In this document: positions 25,319 through 62,299 of the stretch, in pieces | How positions within the stretch are numbered: position 1 is the stretch's first letter | Layout of the letters: each line of letters opens with the position of its first letter | Program-made: the position numbers and the translations under genes | Source: Candidatus Rifleibacteriota bacterium | Lineage (GTDB): Bacteria; Muiribacteriota; Ozemobacteria; Ozemobacterales; Ozemobacteraceae | Direction of reading: 5' to 3' | DNA: 64,000 bases | Assembly (NCBI GenBank): GCA_028689875.1 | Contig: JAQVCG010000004.1 | Location: 3,414-67,413 of the forward strand | Notes under the pieces: model-generated | What the model saw: the letters and a program-made list of their open reading frames with translations, nothing else | The model's database searches: none | Told to the model about the DNA's origin: nothing

Positions 25319-25332
25319 TAAGGAGTTTTATT

Positions 25333-44761: not shown

Positions 44762-44805
44762 AAAAAACAAAAGACTTCAGATTACTCTGAAGTCTTTTGT
44801 TTTTA
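44762..44805. terminator. bidirectional rho-independent terminator
   Basis: Arms AAAAGACTTCAG (44769-44780) and CTGAAGTCTTTT (44787-44798), flanked by an A-run and a T-run. Serves the ABC-F gene (+) and tRNA-Leu (-). Confidence 0.8.
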
Positions 44806-44810
44806 AACGG

Positions 44811-44892
44811 TGCCGGGAACGGGACTTGAACCCGTAAGGCTCTCGCCACACGCCCCTCAAACGTGCGTGTCTACCAGTTCCACCATCCCGGC
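44811..44892 (-). tRNA. tRNA-Leu (anticodon GAG)
   Basis: Folded by hand. Acceptor GCCGGGA/TCCCGGC, discriminator A. D loop GAACTGGTAGA. Anticodon arm CACGT-TTGAGGG-GCGTG. Long variable arm (GGC-GAGA-GCC). T arm ACGGG-TTCAAGT-CCCGT. Confidence 0.9.
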
Positions 44893-44905
44893 GGTTTGTA
44901 AGGGG

Positions 44906-44934
44906 ATTATATAATATTGCGGTTATGTTGTCAA
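44906..44934 (-). promoter_or_regulatory. consensus sigma70 promoter for tRNA-Leu (TTGACA-17-TATAAT)
   Basis: Minus-strand TTGACA at 44929-44934 and TATAAT at 44906-44911, with a 17-nt spacer. 13 nt to tRNA position 1. The -35 directly abuts the stop codon at 44935. Confidence 0.75.
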
Positions 44935-45288
44935 TTACTTTTTTAAAATATTTCTAAGATCCATTTGGGAGGTACCCATGGTATTTGACAAAATCGCAAT
45001 TTCGAGGTCGTGTTTTGATTTTTCAAACGCGGCTTTGTGTATATCAAGGTATCGGCTGCCTTTTTGCAGGGCTTTTTGGTATCTTAGATATGATTCGGTG
45101 TAATTTTCGTAAGCCTTTTGAAGATCGGGGACTGTGCAAGTTATATCAGCAGTATGGGTGGCGGTCTCTTTTTTTGTTTTTTCTGAGTTCATCGCCGAAG
45201 TGGTAAACAAAGCGGCGGCACTGATTGCTACACCGAGGCCGATTGTTATGGCGAGCCCGATTAAACCTTTTCGTTTGCTCTTCATCAT
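44935..45288 (-). CDS. small secreted/membrane-anchored helical protein
   Basis: 117 aa. N-terminal hydrophobic '[20 protein letters not shown]'. Last gene of the nine-gene string. Confidence 0.45.
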
Positions 45289-45296
45289 ACTATTAA

Positions 45297-45800
45297 TTAT
45301 ATCAGATAATCGTTATTAATGGAAGAATCGGCCCGGCTGTCGATGTATTTGATCATTTGAACTCTTGTTCCTGCGCCTACTGCCGTAATGACCTCAAATT
45401 CGTCGGTTAGTAGCTTCATTAATCCTAACCCGCGTCCTCGTATGGAATGCAGACATGTCAAGTCGTCGGGAACTTTTGTGGTATCTATGTCGAATCCGCA
45501 TCCGTTGTCTTCTACGATTATTTCAAGTTTGTCTTTGTAAATCATGAAATCAACGGTAACGCCGGAAGAATACTTTTTAGCGCCGTGCTCAACGGCGTTA
45601 ACAAAGGCTTCATCGACAATCAGCCCAATGTCGTAAACATGTTCTTCTTTAAATCCCATGTTTTTCGCAATAAGCTCGGCGTTTTTTTTTACTACCGAAA
45701 TGTATTTCGCATCGGGAAAATTAAAGCTTATGCATTCAGGAAATTTGCGTTTTGAGCTCATCCATTCGTGTTCTGGCATAATCTGCATTGAGTTGTGCAA
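45297..45800 (-). CDS. RsbW/SpoIIAB-like HATPase_c serine kinase / anti-sigma-type protein
   Basis: 'EAFVNAVEHG', 'IVEDNGCGFD', 'GRGLGLMKLLTDEF'. Start is uncertain: a TTG at 45800, or in-frame ATGs at 45788/45779/45761. All overlap the 3' end of the AAA+ gene. Confidence 0.7.
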   Translation of the reverse strand: MHNSMQIMPEHEWMSSKRKFPECISFNFPDAKYISVVKKNAELIAKNMGFKEEHVYDIGLIVDEAFVNAVEHGAKKYSSGVTVDFMIYKDKLEIIVEDNGCGFDIDTTKVPDDLTCLHSIRGRGLGLMKLLTDEFEVITAVGAGTRVQMIKYIDSRADSSINNDYLI

Positions 45801-47517
45801 ATTTCCCCGGTAAAAATCTTTTGTCAGTGCATTCTACTACCGCCGCCATGTCCATAAACTCAAGGCGTGCCGAATGTGCCATTGGACGGTATGATTCCAT
45901 GGCCTCACGAACAAAGTGTCCGATTGTTTTTCGATCAGGGCAGTCATCTTCCTGCAATTCATACATTCTTGAAGCCATTATTAAAATGCCTTCCATTTCG
46001 TTGCCGCCTATATCGAGTGATTCAGGAAAATCAGGTATTTCTTCGTCAATAATTTCGATCTTATTTTTCTTTGCTAATGCTTTGAACAAGTCTTTTTTGT
46101 CTTCGGTTGTTTGCGGTGCAAATAATGGAATGTGCACGTCAAGTCTTCCCACGCGTTTAAGGTCTATTTCAAGAAGATCAGGTCTCGATGTTGCAAATAT
46201 CCAGAATATTCTTCCTCGATTTCTTGTGTCGGCCATTTCTCGGGCAAGCATTGCATAAATTCTGCCGTTAACACCGGAATCATTGCTTCCGCTGTCTCTT
46301 TTGCCCGCTACTTGGTCTGCTTCGTCGATAAATACAATTACTTGCCCCATCGCGTGCAAAATTTTAAAAATTGCTTCTAAGTTGCCTTCTGTGGCACCGA
46401 CCCACTTATCTCTGAAATTTTTAAGCTCAACACAAGGCACGCCCGCCTCACCCGCAAAACACTCTACCAGGTATGTTTTGCCCGTTCCAATGCGTCCTGT
46501 AATCAGATACCCCATTGGTAACGCCTTGGTTCTGCCTCTTTTCATCAAAGAAGCATCCTGGCGCATCCATCTTTTGGCTTCACTGTGTGCTGCCACGTCA
46601 TCTAGTGTTCTTGTCGATTCGACAAACGTAATTCTGCCGTTAGCAGACTTTTCTATCATTTCTTTTTTAACATCGCGCAGGTAGTCCATTGAAATGCGTC
46701 TGTTATTCTTAATCGCGCGCTCAATCAGGTTTTGCACATCTAAGCACGAAAGCCCTTCGAGCTTTTGTGCAAGCGACTCTCTGTCGATATCGCATAGCTC
46801 TGAAAAGTCTTTAATCTCTGATGTGGCGGCTTTTACAAAATTTAAAACCTCGATTGAACCGGGCAAATCTATCTGAATTTTCGCAGAACGCTGATTTTCA
46901 ACCAACTGCTGATTTAAATCGTTCAGATTCTCGGCAATAAGGCACGTTGTAACATATGCATTCTTTATGTTAGGATCAGAAGCCCAGTCCATAATTCGTA
47001 TGAGCGTTTCGACCGATTCAGCGCTGGTATAAGCAACCTCTGAGCGCGGCAGCAAATATTGAACGTAATCAACAATAACGGCCACACGCATCGGGTTAGC
47101 AACGGTTTTGCCGCTTTTATCAATGCCTGTTCTTATTAAACCGTTTCTTATAAATCTGTCAATTAAAGCCAATGCCTTTTTAGGGTCTTTGGGAAGGGCG
47201 TTATCGATGCCATTGTCGTAGCCCGTTGAGTAAGAGGTGTGATGATAGGTGTCGTAAGTTTTTAAGAAATTAAAAAATAAACTGCTGCCCTTGGCTGTTC
47301 TGATGCCATGACCTCTGTCGTAGCTGAGCACAACTTCAAAAGGAGCGAACATTACGCGAGTCAGAAAATCTTTTAAAGAAAGACACTGAAGATTTTGCTC
47401 TTCACTTTCGGTAAAAGTAACCCAGTCATCAATGTTTCCGTATAACACAAACTGACTAATAGAGCCGCTTTTAAAAATTTCTGCCATTTCTCTGGCCCAA
47501 CTCGGGTAATGTGCCAT
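45736..47517 (-). CDS. classic-clade AAA+ ATPase with ~330-aa unassigned N-terminal domain
   Basis: 593 aa. Walker A 'GRIGTGKTYLVECFA', Walker B 'VIVFIDEADQV', second region of homology 'FATSRPDLLEIDLKRVGRLDVHIP'. No GAFTGA loop and no C-terminal HTH seen. Confidence 0.8.
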   Translation of the reverse strand: MAHYPSWAREMAEIFKSGSISQFVLYGNIDDWVTFTESEEQNLQCLSLKDFLTRVMFAPFEVVLSYDRGHGIRTAKGSSLFFNFLKTYDTYHHTSYSTGYDNGIDNALPKDPKKALALIDRFIRNGLIRTGIDKSGKTVANPMRVAVIVDYVQYLLPRSEVAYTSAESVETLIRIMDWASDPNIKNAYVTTCLIAENLNDLNQQLVENQRSAKIQIDLPGSIEVLNFVKAATSEIKDFSELCDIDRESLAQKLEGLSCLDVQNLIERAIKNNRRISMDYLRDVKKEMIEKSANGRITFVESTRTLDDVAAHSEAKRWMRQDASLMKRGRTKALPMGYLITGRIGTGKTYLVECFAGEAGVPCVELKNFRDKWVGATEGNLEAIFKILHAMGQVIVFIDEADQVAGKRDSGSNDSGVNGRIYAMLAREMADTRNRGRIFWIFATSRPDLLEIDLKRVGRLDVHIPLFAPQTTEDKKDLFKALAKKNKIEIIDEEIPDFPESLDIGGNEMEGILIMASRMYELQEDDCPDRKTIGHFVREAMESYRPMAHSARLEFMDMAAVVECTDKRFLPGKFAQLNADYARTRMDELKTQIS

Positions 47518-47541
47518 ATTTTATTCCTTCTGCTTTTTCTA

Positions 47542-48435
47542 TTATTGATACTGCTTTGCTCTGTTGTGCGGTCTGGCGTCGGCATCAATATCCATCAACG
47601 GATCATCGCCTATTGCAGGCCCACTAAGCTTTCGTAAGAAGTCGCCGTGCGTGTTTATCCAATCTTGGGTTTCGCCCAATGTATTATTGATCATATCTAT
47701 GTTAGAGCTTAGACCTTCTGGACTGCTATCTAGTGCGATACCTTCTCTTACGAAGTTTACCTGATTTTCGATTCTTTGAAGTTCCATTTCTACAAGCATT
47801 TCATTTTCTTTTATTGCTTCAAAGTTTTCGAGGCGCTTTTGAAATATTTCCAGGTTGCCTCTTAGTGATTTTTCAAGTGCCGGGCTCAAATTTGGAGCCT
47901 TCAGTTGACTGTTAATTTTGTGTATTTGGTCTTCGATCTGTTTTGTGTTCGCTTTGTTCTGGCTCTCTTCAATGAGTTGTTTTGTGCGTAAGAGTTTTAA
48001 AAATATTATGGGCATTTGATTTAAGGTGTCCTGTCGGCTCATTACCATAAAGTCACCCTGTTGGTCGACATTCCAGTTCATTAACTTATTGATTTCGCTG
48101 ATATTGGCGTTTAATTTACCGAGTCTTGATGAGTGAACCGTTTTAAGTGTTCCGGCAATTTCGCTGAGCTTTTCGTTTCGCAACTGTTTAAGCTCTAAAG
48201 CTTTTTTACCGTCAACGTAGTTTCTGAAGCGTTGGCTTGATGTCATTACATATAAAAATATGACTTCGATTGCCACTCCAAAAAACCAAAATCCAACATT
48301 GCTCAGCCCTAATATAAGCATTCCGAGCAAAAACAATTTATTTACAGGCACATTTCCGATTCCCGTAAAACAGGTTGTAACATTAAATGCTTCACATACA
48401 TAGTCCGTATAGGTGAGTTTTGATTTAACCGCCAT
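47542..48435 (-). CDS. 2-TM membrane protein with ~220-aa cytoplasmic coiled-coil domain
   Basis: 297 aa. 'LFLLGMLILGLSNVGFWFFGVAIEVIFLYVM' forms two hydrophobic helices, followed by heptad-rich helical sequence. Start overlaps the ABC ATPase stop by 1 nt. Confidence 0.6.
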   Translation of the reverse strand: MAVKSKLTYTDYVCEAFNVTTCFTGIGNVPVNKLFLLGMLILGLSNVGFWFFGVAIEVIFLYVMTSSQRFRNYVDGKKALELKQLRNEKLSEIAGTLKTVHSSRLGKLNANISEINKLMNWNVDQQGDFMVMSRQDTLNQMPIIFLKLLRTKQLIEESQNKANTKQIEDQIHKINSQLKAPNLSPALEKSLRGNLEIFQKRLENFEAIKENEMLVEMELQRIENQVNFVREGIALDSSPEGLSSNIDMINNTLGETQDWINTHGDFLRKLSGPAIGDDPLMDIDADARPHNRAKQYQ

Positions 48436-49307
48436 TACTCTGATCCGCCGATTCTTAAGAATTCGTCAGTTATATCTTTAAGATAATTTTTAAACTTACT
48501 GCTTTCTTGCACTTCTAAGGGGGACATACCTTCTTCTTTTCCTATTTCTTCGGGTTTTATGAATCGCTGTGATACAAGTCTGCCCGGATTAGCTTTGAAC
48601 ATAAATATTCTATCGCTCAAATAAAGCGCTTCCGCTAAAGAGTGAGTAACGATAAATACCGTAGCCTCAACTTCGTGCCACAAATTCGTTATCAACTGCT
48701 GCATTTCGATTCTTGTGGGTTCATCAAGAGCTGAAAAAGGCTCGTCCATAAGTATTATTCTCGGTTTTAACACCAAAGTTCGCGCAATTGCCACACGCTG
48801 CTGCTGACCGCCTGAAAGCTGATAGGGGTATTTATCTTCGTGCCCGCTCATTCCAACTTTCGCAATCATTTCACGCGCTATGCTTTCCATTTTGCTTTGT
48901 TTATAGCCTAGTGTGTGGTTATTAAGCTGCAGTCCGAACATTACGTTCTGCAAAACCGTTAAATGCGGAAAACTGCTGTATTTTTGAAATATCATTCCGC
49001 GGTCACGGCCCGGCCCTTTTACTGGCTTATTTCTTATAAGAATTTCGCCTTCAGTGGGCGGACCCACTTCTTGAAACCCTTGAATTAAATTCAATACCGT
49101 CGATTTACCGCAGCCTGAAGGCCCTACCAACGCAATGAACTCGCCTACGTCAGGCAGGTCTTCAATATTAAAAGTTACATCTTTCAAGGCCATAAACTCA
49201 TTTGGAGTGCCCTGATTGAAAATCTTTGTGACGTTTTTGAAGCTTACAATAGACGGATATCTAACTTCATTTTTAACTTCATCTTTTACTTCAATATTTT
49301 CGTTCAT
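48435..49307 (-). CDS. ABC transporter ATP-binding protein (NitT/TauT-type importer)
   Basis: 290 aa. 'GPSGCGKST', 'LSGGQQQRVAIAR', 'ILMDEPFSALD', 'VTHSLAEA'. Confidence 0.85.
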   Translation of the reverse strand: MNENIEVKDEVKNEVRYPSIVSFKNVTKIFNQGTPNEFMALKDVTFNIEDLPDVGEFIALVGPSGCGKSTVLNLIQGFQEVGPPTEGEILIRNKPVKGPGRDRGMIFQKYSSFPHLTVLQNVMFGLQLNNHTLGYKQSKMESIAREMIAKVGMSGHEDKYPYQLSGGQQQRVAIARTLVLKPRIILMDEPFSALDEPTRIEMQQLITNLWHEVEATVFIVTHSLAEALYLSDRIFMFKANPGRLVSQRFIKPEEIGKEEGMSPLEVQESSKFKNYLKDITDEFLRIGGSE

Positions 49308-50572
49308 CGTTTAAGGCTCCTATAGGGGAAAAGGCTATTGCCGCATTTTTCCCATATTTTATCGGTTATGAATGCCATCACGACTATTGCTATAAGCACT
49401 AAGTAGATATCTTCTCTCGGCCCGCGTCTTTGGCTGGTCAGAATAAGCGCGCCTACGCCATAACTGCCCATATCAACCATTTCGGCCAAGATAATGTAGC
49501 CCCAACCGACTCCAAAGCCCATTCGCATTGCATCGAAAATAGAGGGCATTGCTACAGGCAAAAGAATTTTATTCAGAGTTTGATATTTGCTTGCGCCCAA
49601 TGTGTAGCCTGTTTGCAGATAAACATTATCTACATCATCAATTGCTTTAACAAAAAGTGGAAGCAGATATATTGCAAAGCCTATAGCGAGAAACATAATT
49701 TTTTGAGTTTCGTTGGTTCCGAATAAACACATAGTAAGTGGAACCAATGCGGGTATGGGCAGATAGCCGCTGAAAAGAACCAAAGGTGAGAACAGCGCTT
49801 TAATTTTGCTGAAAGTGCCCATAAGCAATGCTATGGGGAAAACCACTATGAATGCAGTTAAAAAGCCTGCGCTGACACGTAAAAAGCTGTAAAGAATATT
49901 TTTGGGAAGCAATCTGACAGACCACAACTGTGGTAGTGAAGAAAATACTTCAGAGGGGCTCGGTAATATAACCGGCGCAAAAACTCTTGTTTCAACTACC
50001 TCGTATCTGTATTCAAAAAGCTTTATATTAGAGTTTGCGGTTTTGTTTGATGTGTTAAGCGAAACCGACCCGGCAATACCCGGTTCGTTCATTTCGCCAT
50101 TTACTTCGCCTTCAACAGTGTTAACCGGCTTGTTTTCGTCTTCGCTGCTTTTGTTAGCAGAAGTCGGTTTTGAGTATCTGATAATTTTACCCGGAGGTAG
50201 TGTTATAACTGCATTCTTGCCGCGTTTAATAACGGGCAAGCCAACCAGGCTGAACTGTTGGTTTTGGTAAGAAAGGGTAGGAGATAAGTCCTTTTCGTCG
50301 TAGTTTTCGCCTTCGGGGACTTCAGGATACAAAACGTCAGCACCTTCTATGGTCAGTCTGGTTTTGTCTTTAAAAAAAGTGCCTGTTTCAGGCGTCAACT
50401 GAGTGCCTTCAAAGTTCCCGACGGGCAGTTTTATTGTTTTTGCAGAACCTGAGGTTAGCAGATACCACAAAAACAATAATAAAATAATCGGAGCAACACC
50501 GAGAGTAATCTTGTCTTTAAGATTAACCTCGGTGCGTATTCCGAAAAAGTTTTTATGAGTGTCTATTTTCAT
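49304..50572 (-). CDS. ABC transporter permease with ~200-aa N-terminal extracytoplasmic extension
   Basis: 422 aa. One TM near aa 25-45, a hydrophilic ~170-aa segment, then a typical ~6-TM BPD-type permease core ('LPKNILYSFLRVSAGFLTAFIV...'). ATGA overlaps on both sides. Confidence 0.75.
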   Translation of the reverse strand: MKIDTHKNFFGIRTEVNLKDKITLGVAPIILLLFLWYLLTSGSAKTIKLPVGNFEGTQLTPETGTFFKDKTRLTIEGADVLYPEVPEGENYDEKDLSPTLSYQNQQFSLVGLPVIKRGKNAVITLPPGKIIRYSKPTSANKSSEDENKPVNTVEGEVNGEMNEPGIAGSVSLNTSNKTANSNIKLFEYRYEVVETRVFAPVILPSPSEVFSSLPQLWSVRLLPKNILYSFLRVSAGFLTAFIVVFPIALLMGTFSKIKALFSPLVLFSGYLPIPALVPLTMCLFGTNETQKIMFLAIGFAIYLLPLFVKAIDDVDNVYLQTGYTLGASKYQTLNKILLPVAMPSIFDAMRMGFGVGWGYIILAEMVDMGSYGVGALILTSQRRGPREDIYLVLIAIVVMAFITDKIWEKCGNSLFPYRSLKR

Positions 50573-52197
50573 TGCGACTCTGGTGAATAGACAGATACTT
50601 CAACTCTTCTGTTGAGAGCATGATTCTTGGGGTCTAATTCATCAGCAGGTTCATCCCAGCCTTTTCCTTCAACAACAAATTTGTCCGGTGAGAACTTATA
50701 TTTGTTGACGATGGCTTGCTTTACAGCTTCAGCTCTGTCTTTGCTAAGTTTGTTAACGATGCTGCTGTTTACTTTACCCTTCATTGAGCTGTCAGTATGA
50801 CCAACAATGCTCACTATGGCTCTGTCATAGGCACCCGACAATCTTGCAACTCTATCGAGGGTTGCTTCGATGTTTTTGTCGTAGAGCGTGTTAGGAATAA
50901 TTCTGCCTGTAAGGTCATGGGCCGGCTCGTAAATATTGCTCGAATTTGGGTAGAAGTTTATTCTGACAGTTTGAGTAATAATCGGTGCTTCAGCCATTAC
51001 TTTTGAGTAAGTGCTAGGCACATATGAGCTTACATACTTGTCTTTGTGGTGACTGAATTTGCCCTGTTTCTTGAGTTCTTTGATAACCGAGAAATCCATT
51101 ATTTGATTAAATGGAATCATATCTTTAATTAAACCTGCTTCTTTGTAGACGCTGCTTACGCTTTTCCAGGTTTGTTCAAAGTTGGTCGGGTTGTTTGCAT
51201 TCAAGAAAAACTGTTCATTTTCGGCAAAGTTTGTGGGGTGAGCATCGGCTTCCATTGACATGGCTTCTTCTACGCTCATTCCATAACCATCTGCCATAAA
51301 TTGAAACGCCATGGTTTTGGTTGTTGAATTTTCTAGCATATCCATGCCTTCGAAAATACCGGCTACGAGGCCCTTAACTATGTCGGGGTGGTCTTTGGCA
51401 AAGTCGGCTCTTACTGCCCAAACGTCAGCTATAAGCTTGTTTGCGTCTGCAGTTGTGGTGAGTATTCTTGTGCCTGCAACCTTTTCGGGGATAGTGTAGA
51501 TATCGGGTGCCCAGCTTACGCAAGCATCGATAGATTTATCAGAAACAAATGCGGCCGCTGCTTCAAAAGCAGTAGAAGTGTATTTGTGAGTAACTTCGTT
51601 AAGGCCGATACCTGCATTTATGAGCAGGGTGCTGATAAAATATTGTGATGCGCTGTTTTGTGCGTAAACGATGGTTTTGCCTTTAAGATCTTTTACCGAT
51701 CTAATTTTATTTCGGGTTACGATCCCGTCTCCACCGCTTGACCAGTCGATTTGTTGGTATACTCTGGGCGCTGTTCTCGAATCTTTAAAGAGTTCGGGAG
51801 CGAACAGAGCCAGAATGTCCATGGTGCACCATAACACATGGCTTTCGCCGCTTGCGTAACTGTCACGGGCTACAACGGGGTCATCGATGAGCTTTAAGTT
51901 AACTTTAAAACCGTATTTTTTGTAAAAAACACTGTTTTCGTTGGGGGCAAAACCGTGGTTAGCTGCTATGATAGGTAGCCAGCCGGACCAAACGTTAATT
52001 GGAAAAACGACAACTTTTTCTTTGTCGTCCCACTTATAGTTTGAGGTGCCGCGAACCGGGGGAAGAGTTTCTTTTAAAACATATTTATATTCTTTAACTG
52101 TTGTTATCGAATTTTTGTCGGGAGCTTCTTGCGCTGTTGCTGAGCCTGCAAAGGCAAAGCAAAACATCAGCGAAAAAGCTGCAATTAGTTTTTTCAT
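50569..52197 (-). CDS. periplasmic substrate-binding protein (NMT1/NrtA/TauA-like) fused to C-terminal OmpA-like domain
   Basis: 542 aa. Signal peptide 'LIAAFSLMFCFAFAGSATAQ'. SBP core. C-terminus 'IVGHTDSSMKG...LSKDRAEAVKQAIV...NRRVEVSVY' is the OmpA-like peptidoglycan-binding motif. Confidence 0.7.
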   Translation of the reverse strand: MKKLIAAFSLMFCFAFAGSATAQEAPDKNSITTVKEYKYVLKETLPPVRGTSNYKWDDKEKVVVFPINVWSGWLPIIAANHGFAPNENSVFYKKYGFKVNLKLIDDPVVARDSYASGESHVLWCTMDILALFAPELFKDSRTAPRVYQQIDWSSGGDGIVTRNKIRSVKDLKGKTIVYAQNSASQYFISTLLINAGIGLNEVTHKYTSTAFEAAAAFVSDKSIDACVSWAPDIYTIPEKVAGTRILTTTADANKLIADVWAVRADFAKDHPDIVKGLVAGIFEGMDMLENSTTKTMAFQFMADGYGMSVEEAMSMEADAHPTNFAENEQFFLNANNPTNFEQTWKSVSSVYKEAGLIKDMIPFNQIMDFSVIKELKKQGKFSHHKDKYVSSYVPSTYSKVMAEAPIITQTVRINFYPNSSNIYEPAHDLTGRIIPNTLYDKNIEATLDRVARLSGAYDRAIVSIVGHTDSSMKGKVNSSIVNKLSKDRAEAVKQAIVNKYKFSPDKFVVEGKGWDEPADELDPKNHALNRRVEVSVYSPESQ

Positions 52198-52223
52198 CTT
52201 ATAATCCTTAAATGCCAGATATT

Positions 52224-52982
52224 TTAGTTTTGTTCAATATTGCCCATTCCGCGATCTGGAACAGATACCGGTTCAACATCGATTGATTCTGGAACTGAAG
52301 GACTTGCCATGCCATTCATTGCCATAAATTCTGCCAGTGCTGCATCGCCCATAGCTTCCATTTCGGCTTCTTTCATAATCTGATCGGTTGAGTCAACTCC
52401 CGCTGTGGTAGCAACTCTAGAACGACCGATAGCTTTGTCGCGTTTTTCTTCTAACAGAGAGGATACACGGCTGATAGAGTCTCCGCTGCTGCCAATTCCG
52501 CTGATCATGCCTTTTGCCATTTCTTGCAGTTCAGCTTGAGCTTCATGCATTCTGGTTTCGCTGACCATTGTTTCGAGTTTGGAAATTTTAGCTTGTGCTT
52601 CTTTTACAGCTATATCGCGTGATTTAGAGAGATCTTTGAAAGTTTTTTCTGCAATTTCAAACTGAGACTGATTATCTGCAAGTTGTTGTTTAACAGATTG
52701 GAGCTGCATTGCTAACTGACCGGCTACTTTTTGGTTGTTAGCTTTGATGTTAGCGGTAATTTTTGCTGTCAATTCTCTTTCTTTTGCCTGCAAATTCTTG
52801 ATTGTTCGGCTAAGTTTTTCAACAAAACCGGCATGGTTTGCCAAATTTTCATTGAATCGCCCTATTTGGCTGCGAAGATTTTCTTTTTCGCTTTCAATTA
52901 GAGCTTCGGGATTGTTTGCTTCAAGCCCGCTGATAAAGAGACCAAAGAACCCTCGGATAATGTTCATTAAACGTTTAAACAT
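52224..52982 (-). CDS. pspA: PspA/IM30 (Vipp1) family protein
   Basis: 252 aa, all-helical. 'MFKRLMNIIRGFFGLFISGLEANNPEALIESEKENLRSQI...' has the N-terminal amphipathic helix and heptad pattern of PspA/IM30. Confidence 0.7.
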   Translation of the reverse strand: MFKRLMNIIRGFFGLFISGLEANNPEALIESEKENLRSQIGRFNENLANHAGFVEKLSRTIKNLQAKERELTAKITANIKANNQKVAGQLAMQLQSVKQQLADNQSQFEIAEKTFKDLSKSRDIAVKEAQAKISKLETMVSETRMHEAQAELQEMAKGMISGIGSSGDSISRVSSLLEEKRDKAIGRSRVATTAGVDSTDQIMKEAEMEAMGDAALAEFMAMNGMASPSVPESIDVEPVSVPDRGMGNIEQN

Positions 52983-53002
52983 ACAAAAACTCCTTTTGGA
53001 AT

Positions 53003-54778
53003 TTATTTTTCAGGTGTAAATACTTGTACTTCAACCCTACGGTTGAGTGCTTGATTATGTGGATCATTTGAGTCTGCAGGTTCGTTCCAGCCTTTTCCTT
53101 CAATTATAAACTTATTGTCAGGAAATTTATAATTTCGGCTAAGGGCTTTAGAAACAGACTTAGCACGATCGAGCGATAAGTCTTTCACAGCTTTCTCAGG
53201 CACTTTCCCTTTCATAGAACTGTCAGAGTGCCCTACAATTGCAATTTGAGCTCTGTCGTATTGTCCGACCATGCGAGCTATCTTTTCGAGTGTGGCATCA
53301 ACTGTTGGGTCGTATCTTGTGTTTGGTATTGCGTTCCCAAATTCGTCATGTTCAGGCTCAAATATGTTGTCAGAGTTGGGATAGAAGTTTATTCGCACAG
53401 TTTGTGTTAAAACCGGTGCTTCAGCAGATATTTTTTTGTAGCTTGTAGAAACGAAATTGCTGACTTGAATTTCTTTTTGGTCAGGGAATTTATTTTCCTT
53501 TTCGAACTTTTGAATAATACTAAAATCAACTACTTCGTCAAATCTTGTCGGAGTGCCGATATTGCCCAAGGTTCTATAAACTTGGTTTATGTTTTTCCAG
53601 GTTCGTTCAAAGTTTGTGGGACTATTTTTATTCAAGAAGAAGTTTTTGTTTTCAGCAAAGTTCGTAATAAAAGCATCTGCTTCCATGGCCTTTACGTCAT
53701 CTACGTTCATTCCATAGCCTTCTGCCATTAAAGCGAACGCTTTAGCCTTTGTGGTTTCGCTTTTCTTAAGCATGCTCATACCTTCAAAAATCCCTGCTAC
53801 AAGCCCTTCGATGATGTCGGGGTGATCTTTTGCAAAGTCGGCACGTGCAGCCCATGAGTCGGCTATGAGTCTGTTTGCTTCGCCTGAAGTGGTAAGTATT
53901 TTTGTTCCGGCAATTTTTTCGGGTATCGTGTAAATGTCGGGAGCCCAGCTTACGCATGCATGAATGCTTTTATCTGCGACGAATGCTGCAGCCGCTTCAA
54001 ATGCTGTCGAAGTATATTTATGATTGACTTTGTTAAATGGAATTCCGGCGTTCAAGAGCAATGTGGAAATAAAATACTGAGACGAGCTATTTTGAGCATA
54101 AACTATTGTTTTTCCCTCAAGCTGCTTGACGTTATGAATATTGCTTCTGACAACGATTCCGTCGCCGCCGCTCGACCAGTCGATTATCTGATAAATGCGC
54201 GGTGATGTTCTGCTGTCTTTCATAAGGCCCGGCGCAAACAGTGCGAGTATGTCAAGTGTACCCCATAATATCTGTGATTCGCCTGATGCGAATGAATCGC
54301 GCGCTGCTACAGGGTCGTCGATGAGTTTCAGATTAACTTTGAAGCCGTATTTTTTGTAAAAAACGCTGTCGGTATTTGGCGCAAAACCGTTGTTTGCAGC
54401 GATAATCGGCAGCCAGCCCGACCAAACGTTAATCGGAAAGTTGACTATGCGCTCTTTGTCGTCCCATTTGTAGCCCGATACTCCCGAAACAGGAGGCAGG
54501 ATCTGTGTTGGAACGTAAGTATATTCTTTAACCGTAGTAACAGTGTTTGTGTCAGGTGCTTCAACGGATTTTGTAGACGCTGATGAAGAAGAACTTGAAG
54601 ATGAGGTCGCACTGCTGCCCGAGTTTTGGGCTGAAGTGCTGTTAGAATCGCCTTTGCTTGGCCAAAGTTTTTCTTTTAACTCAGGTTTAAAAGAGAATAC
54701 AGCCGCAGCTATGCACCCCAGTATCAATATAAACATTACGGCCTTGCCTAGGGGCGTTGGCCCGATATCGTTGCTCAC
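53003..54778 (-). CDS. membrane-anchored substrate-binding protein::OmpA-like fusion (paralog of 50569-52197)
   Basis: Long stretches are near-identical to the paralog ('FPINVWSGWLPIIAAN','KKYGFKVNLKLIDDPV','KYTSTAFEAAAAFV','CVSWAPDIYTIPEK'). TM anchor 'AVMFILILGCIAAAVFSF' plus Ser-rich linker. C-terminal 'IVGHSDSSMKG...NRRVEVQVF'. I prefer the GTG at 54778 (GAGGAGGG 4 nt upstream) over the track's TTG at 54814. Confidence 0.7.
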   Translation of the reverse strand: MSNDIGPTPLGKAVMFILILGCIAAAVFSFKPELKEKLWPSKGDSNSTSAQNSGSSATSSSSSSSSASTKSVEAPDTNTVTTVKEYTYVPTQILPPVSGVSGYKWDDKERIVNFPINVWSGWLPIIAANNGFAPNTDSVFYKKYGFKVNLKLIDDPVAARDSFASGESQILWGTLDILALFAPGLMKDSRTSPRIYQIIDWSSGGDGIVVRSNIHNVKQLEGKTIVYAQNSSSQYFISTLLLNAGIPFNKVNHKYTSTAFEAAAAFVADKSIHACVSWAPDIYTIPEKIAGTKILTTSGEANRLIADSWAARADFAKDHPDIIEGLVAGIFEGMSMLKKSETTKAKAFALMAEGYGMNVDDVKAMEADAFITNFAENKNFFLNKNSPTNFERTWKNINQVYRTLGNIGTPTRFDEVVDFSIIQKFEKENKFPDQKEIQVSNFVSTSYKKISAEAPVLTQTVRINFYPNSDNIFEPEHDEFGNAIPNTRYDPTVDATLEKIARMVGQYDRAQIAIVGHSDSSMKGKVPEKAVKDLSLDRAKSVSKALSRNYKFPDNKFIIEGKGWNEPADSNDPHNQALNRRVEVQVFTPEK

Positions 54779-54832
54779 TATACCCTCCTCAGAAATATTT
54801 AATATACACTGCAAAAATACACATAAATTATT

Positions 54833-54861
54833 ATACTACTGGTTTTTTACGCCTACTACAA
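54833..54861 (-). promoter_or_regulatory. sigma70-like promoter candidate (TTGTAG-17-TAGTAT) for the nine-gene operon
   Basis: Minus-strand hexamers at 54856-54861 and 54833-54838 with a 17-nt spacer. The -35 abuts the stop of the upstream gene. Confidence 0.45.
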
Positions 54862-55569
54862 CTATTTTTTTGAAATAGCGAAATTTGATTCAATGGCTTT
54901 GGCCAGTTCAAAGTCTTGCGGTGTGTCTACGTCAAGCGATTCTAAGTCTGACATAATATATGCCCCGTGGTTGTCGAAGTCGTACATGCTTTTTTGTTTT
55001 GTCAGATAATCGTATTTTGTGAAATAGATCGCTCCGTTTTCTATGTACCTTTTGGGAATTAGCGTAGATGGTTTTGTGAGTCCGGCGCGGTCTACGGGTG
55101 ATGCCTTGCCTTTTTCGTTCGCTAATTCATATTGCCATTCTACATACTGATCAACCTTTCGCATTGACGAAAGGCTGTTGAAATTTTCTGTTTCAAATTT
55201 ATTCTTAGCTTCAATCAAGTGTTTTACCGACAAAAACGGCGATGTAACCTGCAACAGACATACAGCGCTCGGTGCAGGCAGCCTCTGTTTATTAACAACT
55301 GTCTCAAGAGCGTGCAGCAACACATCTAATGAAGTGGCTATGTCGGTTGCAAGTTCTGCGGGGCGTATGAAAGGAACTTCTGCCCCATATTTTTTCGCTT
55401 CGTCGGCTAATTCATTGTCGTCTGTCGAAACAAAGATTTTAGCAAAAATATTAGCGGCACGTGCCGTTTCAATGCACCGCGCGGTCAGTGATTTGCCGCA
55501 AAAATCTATAATGTTTTTGCGCGGCAATCGTTTTGACCCGGCTCTAACAGGTATTACGGCATAAAGCAT
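54862..55569 (-). CDS. acylneuraminate (nonulosonic acid) cytidylyltransferase family protein
   Basis: 235 aa. 'AVIPVRAGSKRLPRKNI' is the CTP-transferase-3 N-terminal signature. Confidence 0.7.
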   Translation of the reverse strand: MLYAVIPVRAGSKRLPRKNIIDFCGKSLTARCIETARAANIFAKIFVSTDDNELADEAKKYGAEVPFIRPAELATDIATSLDVLLHALETVVNKQRLPAPSAVCLLQVTSPFLSVKHLIEAKNKFETENFNSLSSMRKVDQYVEWQYELANEKGKASPVDRAGLTKPSTLIPKRYIENGAIYFTKYDYLTKQKSMYDFDNHGAYIMSDLESLDVDTPQDFELAKAIESNFAISKK

Positions 55570-55571
55570 TA

Positions 55572-57077
55572 CTAGCCTAGCTTTTTCTTTTGGTCTTCGA
55601 GCTTTTTGAAAAGTTTTTCGTAAATAAGGTAGGGTGCTTCTAAGGTCTGCGGCGTAAACTCTTTGTTTTCATATTTTTTAACAGTGAGTTTTCCCATTTT
55701 TACGAGAAGATCATCTTTTCTTTGTGCAAATTTTTTGGCATGATTTGCATTGCTTTTTTGTTCGGGCGTCGAAACGGTAAATAGGTTTTTTAGTTGTGCA
55801 AAAAAACCTGTTTCTTTTTTTGCTTCTGATTTGTCTTCTTGTTCTGTGTATTTTTGTATAAAGAAATTCATTTTAAGAATTTCGTTACCTACACTGATTA
55901 AATCAATAAATTCAATGTCGCCGGCCTGATACATGTCAAATACCGTGCTTCCGATTGATTTAAGCTGCTCGTCTATTTCTTTTTGAGTATCGTTCACCGA
56001 AAAATTCAGTGCTGTTCTGTTTGATAACTCAATTGCTTCGTCTTTGCCTTTTCTGAAAAAGTTGCTGACTGTAGTTGCAAGGTCATCGGACTTTGCAACG
56101 CCGTCGCCTTGATTTTGTCCTTTTTCATCAGATACACTGCCTTCTTGTATGTTTAAAATAGTCGTCTCCGGCGGATTCGGGCCGAATTTTTCTTCCATGA
56201 GCTTAATCGCTTTTGCAGCTGTTTCTTTAAATATTCCATCGCTGTTGGCTTCTAAGCCCCTTAAAAAAGCATAGGTGCTTTGGTCATAATAGTTGGCTAA
56301 TGCAATAATTGCTTTTATTCTGGTTTCAGGATGCTGCGTCGCTTTTGCCGTTTCAATGAGCATTTCGATTGATTCGGGAGCGGTAATGTGCGAAAGTGCG
56401 TATATGGCGCTTCCTTTCATCCATTCTTCAGGTGACTCAAGCATTTTTTTGAGCTCACCGAAAACTTTTTCTTCGCCAAAACTTTGCAGTGCTTTTGCAG
56501 CCGCAGCTCTTATTCGGTTGTCGGGGTCTCTTAGTGCTGTAAACAGGGCCGGAATAGCTTCTTGTGCCTTAATATGCTCAAGTGCTTCAATTGTGTTTGC
56601 TCTGACCCTGCTGTCTGAATCTTGTAAATACTTAATCAATATGTCGGCTTCGGCATCGCTCAAAAATAGCTTTAAACAGCTGATCATCCCGGCTTTAACA
56701 AAATTATGTTCTTCTGATTTAATCAGCTCTAATAGTTTGTCTTTGTATTCTGCCAGATTTTTGTTTTTTATTTCCATGGCAGCGCTGAGGCGGTCTCTGT
56801 AATCTTCTGAATACAGTCTCTCATCGACCGGAATCTCAAAAACTTCGCCCATTTTTGATAATTTGTCGGCTTTTCTGATTTTATCTAATGCTTTTCGTGC
56901 AAAAAACCTGACTGCTACGTTTTGATCTAAAGTGGCTTTAATAAGTTCTTCAGTTACTTCGCGCCTGGTTTCCTTTTCGGGGTAGTCGAGCTTCATTAGA
57001 GTCATGGCCGAAAGGGCTCTTAAGTCGTCATCAGTGTTGGACAAATCTTTTACAAGTTTTTTTGTTTTTATATCCAT
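55572..57077 (-). CDS. HEAT-repeat protein
   Basis: 501 aa. Repeated 'D.D..VR..A..AL' units ('DQNVAVRFFARKAL','DSDSRVRANTIEALEHI','DPDNRIRAAAAKALQSFG'). Confidence 0.65.
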   Translation of the reverse strand: MDIKTKKLVKDLSNTDDDLRALSAMTLMKLDYPEKETRREVTEELIKATLDQNVAVRFFARKALDKIRKADKLSKMGEVFEIPVDERLYSEDYRDRLSAAMEIKNKNLAEYKDKLLELIKSEEHNFVKAGMISCLKLFLSDAEADILIKYLQDSDSRVRANTIEALEHIKAQEAIPALFTALRDPDNRIRAAAAKALQSFGEEKVFGELKKMLESPEEWMKGSAIYALSHITAPESIEMLIETAKATQHPETRIKAIIALANYYDQSTYAFLRGLEANSDGIFKETAAKAIKLMEEKFGPNPPETTILNIQEGSVSDEKGQNQGDGVAKSDDLATTVSNFFRKGKDEAIELSNRTALNFSVNDTQKEIDEQLKSIGSTVFDMYQAGDIEFIDLISVGNEILKMNFFIQKYTEQEDKSEAKKETGFFAQLKNLFTVSTPEQKSNANHAKKFAQRKDDLLVKMGKLTVKKYENKEFTPQTLEAPYLIYEKLFKKLEDQKKKLG

Positions 57078-58827: not shown

Positions 58828-58847
58828 TTTGCTGAAAAATATCGCTA

Positions 58848-58877
58848 TTGACTTTGTAAGCTTATTCGTACTAAGCT
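58848..58877 (+). promoter_or_regulatory. possible mfd promoter (TTGACT-18-TAAGCT)
   Basis: -35 at 58848-58853. Weak -10 at 58872-58877, only 11 nt before the ATG at 58889. Confidence 0.3.
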
Positions 58878-58888
58878 TTGGGGCTGAA

Positions 58889-61800
58889 ATGCTTTTCAAA
58901 AATATAAATTTTAAAGAAGTCTCTGATTTAACCGGCTGCAAAGGCGTGCTCGCGGCAATTATTATGGCCAAAATCGCCAGGCAGCCCGGCGTAACTTTGC
59001 TTGTGACGCAGAGCCCTGAACGTGCTAAAGAGATGCATGCGCAGATTTTGCCCTGGCTGGGGCCTCAGAGCGACCGTGCTGTGTGCATGCTGCCAGAACG
59101 CGAAACTGTCTACGACCAAACGGCTGCAGACCCTGATGTGCTTTTTTCTCGCATAACCGCAATGTCAATGGAAGGGCGTCTCGGGGGCCTTGTGATTGCT
59201 CCGGTTTCGGTGCTGTTAGAGAGGTTTTTTGCTCCCAAAATTTGGCTTAATGAATGTTTTGAAGTAAAACAAGGCACAGAAGTTAAACGCAGCGAATTTA
59301 TAAATAAACTGGTTAAAATCGGCTATAAACGAACGGCAACTGTCGAAGAAAGATCAACTTTCGCCGTAAGAGGCAGCTTGATTGACATTTTCCCGCCAAA
59401 CTCTGAATTTCCTTACAGATTCGATTTTTTCGGAGACGACCTCGAAAGCATAAAACTTTTTTCGCCCCAAACGCAAAGGTCGTTTGATAAACGCGACAAA
59501 GTTTTTATAACTCCCGTGTTTGAGTTCGTGGCTGACGAAGACGATTACTCTAAGGTCGCCGCAAAAGTCGAAGACGAAATAGTGGCACTCGACGAGCGCC
59601 GGGCAGCACTGCTCGAACGCAAACTCGAGCACTTCAGAAGCGCCGCCGATTCGCGCGACTTTAAAGAGCTGAAGCCATTTGTGCATAAGGCCGACGGCTA
59701 TTTGTTCGACTATTGGCAGAACCCTCACATCATTCTCGACGAGGCCGACCAAACCATTAAAGCGTTTGACGAGGTGTTCGAGAGCTTTGAACGCCGATTT
59801 GAGCAGTCGCAAGATACCACCCCTTTAAAGCAGCCTCACGCCTACTACCACAGGCCCAACGCTCTTATAGATTTGCTGAACAGCGCAAAATACGCAAGAA
59901 TGACGGTGTTCTCGCCAATTTCGAACCCTTTGTTCGAAAATGTCGAATACCTCACGCCGCCCACCGATTTGTCGCGCGAAACTCTTTTGAAAGACTTGAG
60001 AGCCCTTACAGAAGCCAATTGGTCGGTTGCGATAGCCATCGAAGACGAAGGGCGATTGAATAACCTGCGAGGCTTGCTCGGGGAACGAAAAGTTAAAATT
60101 CACTCGTCGGCGCAGCCATTTAATCTTAAAGCAGGATCGGTGCTGTTTTTAAAAGGACGCGCCAAAAGAGGATTCAAAGACCATAACCAAAAAATCGCCG
60201 TCTTTGCCGAAGAAGATATTTTTATGGGCCCCGCCCGCGAAAATACTGCGAAAAAGCGCACTGCTTCAAAAAATTTGATGCAAATCGATCAAATGGTGCC
60301 GGGCGACATTGTGGTGCACGCAGACCACGGAGTTGCCGAGTTTAGAGGCATTCTTACCATGACTGCCGGCGGAAACACCCGCGAATACATCTTTTTGCAA
60401 TACGCCGGGGCCGATAAACTCTATGTGCCTACCGACCAAGTGCATAAGGTCTCGAAATATCTTGGCGCCGAAGGATACGTGCCAAGGCTCCAAAGTTTAA
60501 ATTCAAAAACTTGGGTGACGCAAAAGGCAAAAGTTAAGAAAAATGTTGAATATATCGCGCGCGAGCTGCTTGAGCTTTATGCTGAGCGAATTGCAAACAA
60601 AGGTTTTGCCTTTGAAAAAGATAACGACATGATGCGTCAAATGGAAGAAAACTTCCCGTTTATCGAAACTCCCGACCAGATGAAGGCTATCGTGTCAGTC
60701 AAAGAAGACATGGAAAGCGAATCCCCAATGGACCGTCTGATTTGCGGAGACGTTGGTTACGGCAAAACAGAAGTGGCCATGCGCGCCGCATTTAAAGCCG
60801 TTTGTTCGGGCAAACAGGTCGCTGTTCTTGCTCCCACAACACTTTTGGCGTTTCAGCATTATCAAAGCTTTATAAAGCGATTTGAAGGTTTTCCCGTGTC
60901 GGTCGATATGATAAGCCGATTGAGAAAAGCTAACGAACAAAAAGACACCATTGCGAAACTTAAGGCCGGCATTCTCGATGTAGTAGTCGGGACCCACAGA
61001 ATTTTGTCGAGCGACATCAGATTTAAAGATTTAGGTCTGTTAATTGTTGACGAAGAGCAGCGATTTGGCGTTAAACACAAAGAAAAACTCAAAAAGTTTA
61101 AAACATTGGTTGATGTTCTGACCCTGACTGCAACGCCGATTCCGCGAACTATGCAGATGGCCATGTCTGGAATTCGCCAGATCAGTATTATCGACACGCC
61201 GCCCAAAGACCGCCGCCCCGTAAATACTTATGTGGCGCCATTTGACGCCGGTTGGATAAAGCGCGCCATAATCGAAGAGCTCAAACGTGGCGGGCAAATT
61301 TATTATGTGTATAATCGTGTTGAAACTATCGATAAAAAAGCCGCGTTTTTGCGCGAACTCGTGCCTGATGCGCGAATTATCACCGCTCACGGCCAAATGG
61401 ATGAAAACGAAGTCGAAAAAACAATGGTCGATTTTGTTAAGCGCGAATACGACATTCTTGTTGCCACAACAATTATTGAATCCGGGTTGGATATTCCAAA
61501 TGCTAATACACTGATAGTCGACGAAGCAGAGCGCCTCGGATTATCGCAAATGTATCAGCTGCGCGGAAGAGTAGGGCGAAGCGCAAGACAAGCTTGGGCC
61601 TATTTCTTTTATTCAAAAGGAAAACGCCTTTCAAAAGAAGCTAACGACAGACTTGAGACCATAGAAGAACATACCGCGCTCGGCTCAGGCTTTAAGATCG
61701 CCATGCGCGACCTGCAGATCAGAGGCGCCGGAAACATTTTGGGCGAATCACAAAGCGGGCATATCGCAAGCATAGGACTTTCATTATACATGGAAATGCT

Positions 61801-62299
61801 CGAAGACGCAGTTATTAAAGCCAAAACGGGCAATCGTGCTTACGAAAAAATCGATTCTGCAATCGAAATACCCGTTACCGCATATTTACCGAAAACTTAT
61901 ATTCCCGAAGAAGAAACGCGTGTTGAGCTTTATTCAAGGTTGGCGCGCTGCAAAGATCTCGAACTTTTGTCAGAAATTAAAGACGAGTGCGAAGACAGAT
62001 TCGGGCCGCTTCCTTCTGAAGCTATGGCATTATATGCGATCAGCCGGTTGAGAGTTCTTGCGGTAAACGCTAATGTGGTCAAGGTTACAAGGGTTATCAA
62101 TCACTTGCGATTCGAATTTTCGAAAAACAAACTCCCCGATATCGGCAGAGTCTTCTCGAGCGGTTCAGACATTTTGTCGGGCGTATATTTCGACAGCTTC
62201 GATCCCAACGCCATCAATTTGAAAATCGACGACAACACCCCCGAAATTATTTTCGACAACGCCGCAAATCTTCTAACTATCTTCGCCGATTCCTTTTAA
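58889..62299 (+). CDS. mfd: transcription-repair coupling factor
   Basis: 'DRLICGDVGYGKTEVAMRAAF' (Walker A), 'LLIVDEEQRFGV', 'LTATPIPRT', 'QLRGRVGRS'. UvrB-homology N-terminus. I prefer the ATG at 58889 (MLFKNINF...) over the track's TTG at 58829. Confidence 0.9.
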   Translation: MLFKNINFKEVSDLTGCKGVLAAIIMAKIARQPGVTLLVTQSPERAKEMHAQILPWLGPQSDRAVCMLPERETVYDQTAADPDVLFSRITAMSMEGRLGGLVIAPVSVLLERFFAPKIWLNECFEVKQGTEVKRSEFINKLVKIGYKRTATVEERSTFAVRGSLIDIFPPNSEFPYRFDFFGDDLESIKLFSPQTQRSFDKRDKVFITPVFEFVADEDDYSKVAAKVEDEIVALDERRAALLERKLEHFRSAADSRDFKELKPFVHKADGYLFDYWQNPHIILDEADQTIKAFDEVFESFERRFEQSQDTTPLKQPHAYYHRPNALIDLLNSAKYARMTVFSPISNPLFENVEYLTPPTDLSRETLLKDLRALTEANWSVAIAIEDEGRLNNLRGLLGERKVKIHSSAQPFNLKAGSVLFLKGRAKRGFKDHNQKIAVFAEEDIFMGPARENTAKKRTASKNLMQIDQMVPGDIVVHADHGVAEFRGILTMTAGGNTREYIFLQYAGADKLYVPTDQVHKVSKYLGAEGYVPRLQSLNSKTWVTQKAKVKKNVEYIARELLELYAERIANKGFAFEKDNDMMRQMEENFPFIETPDQMKAIVSVKEDMESESPMDRLICGDVGYGKTEVAMRAAFKAVCSGKQVAVLAPTTLLAFQHYQSFIKRFEGFPVSVDMISRLRKANEQKDTIAKLKAGILDVVVGTHRILSSDIRFKDLGLLIVDEEQRFGVKHKEKLKKFKTLVDVLTLTATPIPRTMQMAMSGIRQISIIDTPPKDRRPVNTYVAPFDAGWIKRAIIEELKRGGQIYYVYNRVETIDKKAAFLRELVPDARIITAHGQMDENEVEKTMVDFVKREYDILVATTIIESGLDIPNANTLIVDEAERLGLSQMYQLRGRVGRSARQAWAYFFYSKGKRLSKEANDRLETIEEHTALGSGFKIAMRDLQIRGAGNILGESQSGHIASIGLSLYMEMLEDAVIKAKTGNRAYEKIDSAIEIPVTAYLPKTYIPEEETRVELYSRLARCKDLELLSEIKDECEDRFGPLPSEAMALYAISRLRVLAVNANVVKVTRVINHLRFEFSKNKLPDIGRVFSSGSDILSGVYFDSFDPNAINLKIDDNTPEIIFDNAANLLTIFADSF

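Follow-up and report, generated by a model that had tools for sequence, protein, structure and literature searches.

We analysed a stretch of 64,000 nucleotides (nt), hereafter the window, from a metagenome-assembled genome (MAG) of Candidatus Riflebacteria (Ozemobacteraceae), in which nine open reading frames (ORFs), g1 to g9, follow one another on the minus strand at positions 44935-54778. Six of these genes, g2 to g7, make up a core that keeps its order and strand in more than 10 phyla at 30-67% protein identity. The core encodes PspA (g2), a solute-binding protein fused to an OmpA domain (SBP::OmpA, g3), the permease (g4) and the ATPase (g5) of an ATP-binding cassette (ABC) importer, a membrane-hairpin helical protein (g6) and a classical AAA+ ATPase (g7). 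A functional linkage of the six core genes is strongly supported by this conservation, and the core would most likely act as a machine for membrane maintenance that is attached to an ABC importer tethered to peptidoglycan.

An initial annotation of the window, made from the sequence, did not recognise this combination as a described system. However, the system has already been described, by comparative genomics only, since Ravi et al. (mSystems 2024; preprint 2020) list the exact architecture: PspA, PBPB+OmpA, permease, ABC-ATPase, a transmembrane segment (TM)+Snf7 and inactive-AAA+AAA, in this order. Their example is OGG56892.1 from Candidatus Handelsmanbacteria, and a PspA-AAA+ dyad is listed for Clostridium. 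They proposed an ATP-dependent membrane remodelling coupled to solute transport, in which the OmpA domain binds peptidoglycan; that the same inference was drawn there provides independent support for the functional link. Genes g2-g7 of the window match their operon in content, order and proposed role, as PspA, the secreted SBP::OmpA, the permease and ABC ATPase before g6, and the inactive and active AAA modules are all present. The position and membrane anchor of g6, which these authors label as TM + divergent Snf7, also agree, whereas Snf7 homology was undetected here in hhalign comparisons of low power. The window genus differs in the addition of g1 as a paralogue, an insertion in the permease, a co-oriented RsbW-like g8 and an exported g9. 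Neither the architecture nor the hypothesis is new (Ravi et al., 2024). Our analysis contributes the phyletic breadth of the core, its block structure, the ranking of its proteins by conservation, a motif in the tail of PspA, and the recognition of g1, g8 and g9 as lineage-specific add-ons.

Conservation of the six-gene core

The neighbourhood was surveyed by scanning one genome per species with an AAA+ alignment as seed. At least 538 loci proved related, of which the 80 best were retained (L001-L080), and the nine proteins of the window served as queries against their six-frame ORFs. In 48 of these 80, the AAA+ gene is accompanied by all five partners in the order g2-g3-g4-g5-g6-g7. Sufficient flanking sequence on either side was available for 42 loci: 30 of them hold all five partners and 5 the PspA-AAA+ pair alone. 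The full order was found in Riflebacteria, Acidobacteriota (Thermoanaerobaculia and Vicinamibacteria), Myxococcales, Eremiobacterota, MAGs of Gammaproteobacteria and Burkholderiales, Eisenbacteria, Fischerbacteria and Edwardsbacteria. Core co-occurrence is listed also for Planctomycetota, Gemmatimonadota, Armatimonadota and several candidate phyla, and truncated loci of Aminicenantes, Armatimonadetes and Holophagales contain the downstream part of the same core order. The Planctomycetota loci L072, L073, L075 and L077, together with L074, L078 and L080, show a permuted order, in which g6-g7 come first, then g2-g3 and then g4-g5; the core therefore appears to be built of three stable two-gene blocks. 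Two PspA genes stand in tandem in L078.

A PspA-AAA+ pair with neither transporter nor g6 genes within 10 kb was seen in 7 of the 80 loci, five of them from gut or rumen Riflebacteria (L009-L011, L016 and L017) and the others being L067 and L069. Wherever the transporter block is missing, the PspA gene lies directly 5' of the AAA+ gene, and for this reason we regard the pair as the minimal unit of the system. The 80-locus survey revealed no further neighbours common to the phyla beyond the six core genes. Two lineage-restricted proteins are encoded 3' of the AAA+ gene: one of about 176 aa beginning MADLHLMEYNESDRADYL, at a distance of about 0.7 kb in L061, L064, L065 and L068, which we take to be possibly TerB-like, and another of about 216 aa in L057, L059, L062, L068 and L076.

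A survey of this kind had been suggested by the initial annotation, and the co-occurrence of PspA, SBP::OmpA, permease, ABC ATPase, g6 and AAA+ in one order across many phyla answers it in the affirmative. The nine-gene unit drawn there stood for g2-g7 and failed for g1, g8 and g9, which are confined to Riflebacteria, g8 being convergent in Rifleibacterium. Given this distribution, we consider that the functional unit comprises six genes and that g1, g8 and g9 are real but lineage-specific additions. In relatives with a 95% identical AAA+, all nine genes are kept co-oriented. A cultured host was also sought, and all of the homologues looked up were metagenomic proteins.

Proteins of the core and the tail motif of PspA

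The AAA+ ATPase (g7, 45736-47517, minus strand, 593 aa) is a type-II classical AAA+ protein that matches PF00004 at 1.8e-27 over residues 338-464 and contains the segment SRPDLLEIDLKRVGRLD at residues 444-460. Its second module, D2, carries GRIGTGKT, a KWVG pore loop, VFIDEADQ and the arginine fingers of KRVGRLD, and is followed by a conserved C-terminal extension. In D2, Walker A (GRIGTGKT), the KWVG pore loop, Walker B (VFVDEADQ) and the two arginine fingers of KRxGRLD do not vary among 66 sequences, whereas D1 is degenerate, with GNVxDLV at the Walker A site and DYAQF at the Walker B site. The best sequence matches in the PDB are VAT (phmmer 7e-35), Cdc48 and p97, and the alignment to them begins about 80 residues ahead of the AAA module, in a part corresponding to the lid of the preceding domain. 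In the AlphaFold2 (AF2) model (mean predicted local distance difference test, pLDDT, 76), the N-terminal 300 residues are predicted to fold as a degenerate AAA module, and the model aligns over about 620 columns to D1-D2 of p97, Cdc48 and Rix7 (Foldseek E 5e-16). Searches of Pfam and NCBIfam returned no MIT, helix-turn-helix (HTH), protease or Sigma54_activat match, and the NCBIfam scores for CDC48 (77 bits, cut-off 803), FtsH (75 bits) and CdvC (45 bits, cut-off 650) all lie far below the cut-offs. The degenerate D1, the intact D2 and these low family scores indicate that the protein is a type-II classical AAA+ of its own kind, whose D2 ring is competent for threading; judged by its sequence, it is unfoldase-like and stands outside the Vps4 family. 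The initial annotation was right in assigning it to the classical clade, with Walker A/B and a second region of homology (SRH), and in separating it from PspF-type activators, given the intact D2 and pore loop and the lack of an HTH and of GAFTGA. The Vps4-like build and the MIT-like N-domain that it had brought up were not borne out: no MIT was matched, the N-terminal region is a degenerate AAA module, and the degenerate D1 with active D2 is as in Cdc48/p97. A possible link to Ycf46 goes back to a COG-style label in source names only, and a search of the literature on it yielded nothing of use.

The product of g2 (52224-52982, minus strand, 252 aa) is a PspA/IM30 protein of the ESCRT-III superfamily. 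It matches PF04012 at 1.1e-10 over profile positions 3-216 of 220 (PspA_IM30, 42 bits for a cut-off of 33.9) and continues past the Pfam domain in a C-terminal tail. This Pfam family was matched by 24 of the 24 family members scanned, which come from many phyla, and the family profile matches the solved Synechocystis Vipp1 (7o3w) in register (E 2e-4); pairwise comparison of the window PspA with E. coli PspA gave no significant similarity. The tail of AAA+-linked PspAs runs from a conserved 'ALAEF' helix through a variable Pro/Ala/Glu-rich linker of 20-32 aa to a [KR][DE][MLI]GP motif, which sits 4-17 residues ahead of the C-terminus. Within the last 25 residues [MLI]GP occurs in 49 of 51 AAA+-linked PspAs (0.9 expected after shuffling), and the motif is also present in the PspAs of the pair-only loci. 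E. coli PspA, the partner of PspF, ends without such a tail and is the sole control for the motif, as plasmid-borne PspA homologues sought for this purpose gave no match. Conserved as it is near the end of a flexible tail, this peptide looks like a docking site for a partner, and the AAA+ may be that partner.

No Pfam or NCBIfam family was matched by g6 (47542-48435, minus strand, 297 aa). The protein has two short hydrophobic helices of about 13 and 19 residues with a conserved N-P-G turn between them, followed by long helices that span about 200 aa and by a disordered tail (AF2 model, pLDDT 71). Since basic residues follow the second hydrophobic helix, the helical domain would be placed in the cytoplasm. 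The family comprises 1178 cluster representatives of about 280-300 aa, and in the 80-locus survey the gene, wherever present, immediately precedes the AAA+ gene. An ESCRT-III-like hairpin fold, raised in the initial annotation, did not emerge from hmmscan, hhalign or Foldseek, which were tests of low power here. None of 76 diverse members gave a Pfam match (hmmscan), be it to Snf7, PspA or another family, and the g6 profile had no match among PDB sequences. By hhalign, the probability was 5% for the PspA family of the operon and 1% for a 113-sequence Snf7 profile (P = 0.057, a poorer value than that of the reversed control), and Foldseek of the AF2 model returned non-significant BAR-type bundles only (best Lsp1, E 0.03, TM-score 0.28). 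These negatives carry little weight, because the hhalign set-up also missed accepted relationships: PspA against Snf7 reached 7.5%, and the g2 family was not linked to E. coli PspA. In the model, the helix lengths of g6 appear compatible with an ESCRT-III core.

On the periplasmic side, g3 (50569-52197, minus strand, 542 aa) is a secreted SBP (NMT1/SsuA/TauA-like)::OmpA fusion (Pfam NMT1 1.2e-9, OmpA 1.4e-9), whose sequence shows a signal peptide and contains the NRRVE motif. Its PDB matches to SsuA, TauA, NrtA and OmpA-like domains are weak, and for the ligand of the binding protein only weak similarities (SsuA, TauA, NrtA and 'urea') were obtained. The type-I importer permease g4 (49304-50572, minus strand, 422 aa, NitT/TauT-like) matches BPD_transp_1 at 1.7e-12; its NCBIfam matches to SaoP and TauC cover it from residue ~190 on, and the alignment with orthologues of other phyla covers only 54% of its length. 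What had been read as an extracytoplasmic N-extension of about 200 aa is actually a hydrophilic insertion of about 155 aa between TM1 and a conserved LPSP segment, found in Riflebacteria only and without a family match. By the usual topology of the permease family this insertion is predicted to be the first periplasmic loop, and its length is reduced by 33 aa in the relative with a 95% identical AAA+. The ABC ATPase g5 (48435-49307, minus strand, 290 aa) is TauB/SaoA/NrtD-like (ABC_tran 2.8e-31; TauB-type 198 bits).

The median identity to orthologues outside Riflebacteria is 67% for SBP::OmpA, 60% for the ABC ATPase, 57% for the permease, 55% for PspA, 50% for the AAA+ and 31% for g6. As SBP::OmpA tops this ranking, the transporter may be the centre of the system and not an accessory. 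The linker between the two domains of the fusion is also conserved (66%). Such conservation between phyla (orthologues in L019-L077) is unusual for a solute-binding protein.

Proposed role of the core and competing explanations

From the observed gene content, domains, order, catalytic motifs and PspA tail motif, we infer the physical interactions of the core and their direction of action. PspA would assemble at the inner membrane, on its cytoplasmic side, and g6, held in this membrane by its hairpin with its long helices in the cytoplasm, would serve close to the membrane as a scaffold or nucleator. Through its D2 ring and KWVG loops, the AAA+ hexamer would grip a flexible tail and pull subunits from the assembly, leading to polymer turnover, and the likeliest handle would be the C-terminal linker of PspA with its [KR][DE][MLI]GP motif. 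This role would be analogous to that of Vps4 on ESCRT-III, but exerted by a protein of Cdc48-like architecture. In addition, the NitT/TauT-type importer, with its binding protein fixed to peptidoglycan via OmpA, might supply a solute under envelope or osmotic stress or report the state of the periplasm. We hold the chances to be about even that the AAA+ threads PspA tails and in this way turns over PspA assemblies organised at g6, in a process coupled to the wall-tethered importer. The remodelling machine envisaged by the initial annotation is supported in part, by the six-gene linkage, while its mechanism stays at the level of a proposal.

The core can be compared with several known systems. 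In the survey of Makarova et al. (2024; PMC11188069) ESCRT systems were limited to archaea and to eukaryotes, and according to a 2025 review bacteria seem to lack a Vps4-like ATPase (PMC7619361). The window shares with ESCRT-III/Vps4 (CdvB/CdvC) a polymer gene of the superfamily near a classical AAA+ whose pore loop reads K-W-hydrophobic-G and which has SRH arginine fingers, as well as a polymer subunit whose flexible C-terminal tail bears a short conserved motif. It differs from them in an AAA+ that has no MIT, has tandem modules with a degenerate D1 instead of a single one and scores far below the CdvC cut-off; moreover, its polymer is of PspA type and not of Snf7 type, ESCRT-II-like winged-helix genes are lacking and an ABC importer is coupled to the system. 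Cdc48, p97 and VAT provide the best sequence and structure matches, aligned across D1-D2, but D1 of the window AAA+ has no Walker A/B, the C-terminal extension is family-specific and the CDC48 score is again far from its cut-off. The double-psi-barrel N domain is also missing, because the protein begins with D1. As in the gammaproteobacterial PspF-PspABC system, a PspA-family gene is coupled to an AAA+ gene; however, the AAA+ of the window is not a sigma-54 activator, PspB and PspC are absent and PspA has an extra tail. Finally, in the archaeal Halo_adaptin/Meth_adaptin loci a MIT-less Vps4-like ATPase is encoded beside a PspA-like gene, and a related type of locus includes an ABC-type binding protein, ProX (Makarova et al., 2024; PMC11188069). 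Those ATPases differ in combining a VAT-N-like domain with a single AAA module, and those loci contain winged-helix and adaptin-like genes and no OmpA fusion, permease or ABC ATPase.

Several points weigh against a turnover of PspA by the AAA+. The latter carries neither MIT nor another known ESCRT-III-binding module, and its family-model scores are nearer to Cdc48/FtsH than to CdvC/Vps4. In turn, g6 showed no link to Snf7 or PspA in hmmscan, hhalign (a weak test in our hands) or Foldseek, the PspA of the window and of its genus has a degenerate variant of the motif, RGMGN (tail at 52224-52320), and the most conserved protein is the SBP::OmpA fusion and not PspA or the AAA+. A literature search found no experimental study of any cluster member. 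Furthermore, E. coli PspA binds and inhibits the AAA+ protein PspF (PMC7619361), and regulation here could run the opposite way. A pairing of this kind would have PspA silence the AAA+ under normal conditions; upon membrane stress PspA would be recruited to the membrane, and the released AAA+ would act on its real substrate, g6 or the ABC transporter, for example by extracting or resetting a stalled transporter. Consistent with it, the PspA-AAA+ pair is the minimal conserved unit, g6 always adjoins the AAA+, and the tail motif of PspA could equally be an inhibitory docking peptide. Nevertheless, the AAA+ is of another clade than PspF, with a threading pore loop and no GAFTGA or HTH, and the pair-only loci have no g6 or transporter nearby as a substrate; we find this arrangement rather improbable.

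The ranking by conservation points to a different possibility, that the system serves the uptake or sensing of a specific periplasmic solute, and that PspA, g6 and the AAA+ assemble, stabilise or quality-control the envelope-spanning complex and protect the surrounding membrane. The higher identities of SBP::OmpA, ABC ATPase and permease in comparison with the AAA+ and g6, the elaboration of the periplasmic side in Riflebacteria (a second SBP::OmpA and the permease insertion) and the ProX binding protein of archaeal ESCRT loci (PMC11188069) would fit with it. However, PspA-AAA+ pairs occur without transporter genes in the seven loci mentioned above and in the published Clostridium example, and the similarities of the binding protein are too weak to assign a ligand. 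We give this explanation about the same, rather low probability as the regulatory pairing. A role in anti-phage defence built on an IetA/IteA-like AAA+ was suggested by weak matches of the AAA+ (PADLOC IetA 40 bits; NCBIfam IteA 35 bits for a cut-off of 510), but these scores reflect generic AAA+ similarity, partner genes of IetA/IteA are missing and no other cluster protein matches a defence family in PADLOC. As the gene order is vertically conserved across phyla and purifying selection is housekeeping-like, defence is highly improbable, and we rejected it on the generic P-loop/AAA nature of the PADLOC similarity. Concerning a fortuitous adjacency of unrelated genes, g1, g8 and g9 are indeed lineage-specific and the orientation of g8 varies between genera; for the six-gene core such an adjacency is refuted by the synteny survey, given the order and strand held in more than 10 phyla, and its probability is close to nil.

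A stronger form of the proposal that the AAA+ turns over PspA assemblies is that an analogue of the ESCRT-III/Vps4 cycle exists in many bacterial phyla, in which the AAA+ would dock on the tail of a dedicated PspA and thread it, dismantling the PspA polymers, these polymers would be organised at g6, and the cycle would be gated by a wall-tethered SBP/ABC system that reads the periplasm state or the membrane-wall distance. We regard this as possible although doubtful. If true, it would overturn the textbook confinement of ATP-driven ESCRT-III turnover to archaea and eukaryotes. In this sense, the cluster constitutes a concrete and widespread candidate for the missing disassembly activity on bacterial PspA/Vipp1 polymers, and the extreme conservation of SBP::OmpA suggests an unrecognised link of the periplasm or cell wall to the repair of the cytoplasmic membrane. 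For further work there are now a defined core of six genes, a motif in the tail of PspA that is open to mutation and an AAA+ whose catalytic residues are clear enough to be knocked out.

Lineage-specific genes and other features of the window

The first gene of the cluster, g1 (53003-54778, minus strand, 591 aa), encodes a membrane-anchored SBP (NMT1/SsuA-like)::OmpA protein (Pfam OmpA 2.5e-10, NMT1 2.9e-5) with a TM anchor and a Ser-rich linker; it is a paralogue of g3 (68% identity over 524 aa) that occurs in no loci other than those of Riflebacteria. At the other end, g8 (45297-45788, minus strand) encodes an RsbW-like HATPase_c_2 protein of 154-163 aa (PF13581 6.3e-19; RsbW 75 bits for a cut-off of 145). 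Its likeliest start is the ATG at 45761, at a conserved 'KRKFPE' region, which gives a 26-nt overlap with g7; the start as called in close relatives is the ATG at 45788, with a 53-nt overlap. Riflebacteria alone have the gene, beside that of the AAA+, and in other phyla it is missing from the surroundings of the core. Its orientation flips, being convergent in Rifleibacterium (L001-L004 and L018; for instance L002, 11800-12270) and co-oriented in the closest relatives, and its ratio of nonsynonymous to synonymous substitution rates (dN/dS) is 0.07. No STAS or sigma partner for g8 came to light in a scan of 20 flanking proteins, which reach about 20 kb downstream and about 9 kb upstream of the gene, or next to the Rifleibacterium homologue. 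The last gene, g9 (44935-45288, minus strand, 117 aa), is genus-specific and has an N-terminal signal or anchor and no family match. It is present in the relatives with a 95% identical AAA+, with a dN/dS of 0.10, and none of the 80 surveyed loci has a g9 homologue adjoining the cluster.

Regarding the layout of the locus, an ORF check agreed with the initial annotation on the nine co-directional genes and their coordinates, and on the junctions: +20 nt for g1/g2, +26 for g2/g3, -4 (ATGA) for both g3/g4 and g4/g5, -1 for g5/g6, +24 for g6/g7, an overlap for g7/g8 and +8 for g8/g9. Pfam and NCBIfam likewise upheld each of its domain calls for g1-g9. The most likely start of g1 is the GTG at 54778, with GGAGG five bases ahead, and good Shine-Dalgarno (SD) sequences precede g2 (AAGGAG, strong), g3 and g7. 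All nine genes are under purifying selection, with dN/dS values of 0.02-0.10 against the relative with a 95% identical AAA+. The overlaps and tight spacing, the good SD sequences and a single strong terminator after a tRNA gene give the locus an operon-like structure.

A candidate promoter region (54830-54861, minus strand), read from the sequence, lies in the 83-nt gap 5' of g1. The TTGTAG-17-TAGTAT promoter proposed at 54833-54861 matches the consensus at only 7 of 12 positions and falls below the threshold of a consensus scan; within the same gap a perfect -10 element, TATAAT, is found at 54835-54830, although the scan does not report the region. An Rfam-type search 5' of the operon found no riboswitch or leader that might reveal a ligand. 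Downstream, a tRNA-Leu(GAG) gene (44809-44892, minus strand; ARAGORN; Rfam tRNA 48.8 bits) has its own promoter, TTGACA-17-TATAAT (44934-44906, minus strand, 12/12 match), which begins at the stop codon of g9. It is followed by an intrinsic terminator (44763-44804, minus strand) with a perfect 19-bp stem and a U run (-29.9 kcal/mol, z = -7.1; none of 200 shuffles equally stable). The earlier statement that no terminator occurs before the end of the tRNA gene holds, since this strong one follows it, and the hairpin is predicted to close both the operon and the tRNA transcripts and to be common to the convergent ABC-F gene. Weak Rfam small RNA matches at 44763-44934 (BjrC68, E 4e-4, below gathering) probably correspond to the terminator hairpin.

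Immediately upstream of the operon, on the same strand (54862-57077), lie genes for a cytidylyltransferase (CTP_transf_3) and for a 501-aa HEAT-repeat protein with faint adaptin/condensin-type matches, whose synteny with the operon was seen only in the closest relatives. Elsewhere in the window, a module of three genes (24320-29876) codes first for a DUF2760 protein and then for two Hsp70-like proteins, of which the second has a DUF3731 C-terminal domain, and an AbiEii toxin/AbiEi antitoxin pair (type IV toxin-antitoxin, 62273-63803) adjoins mfd (58829-62299).

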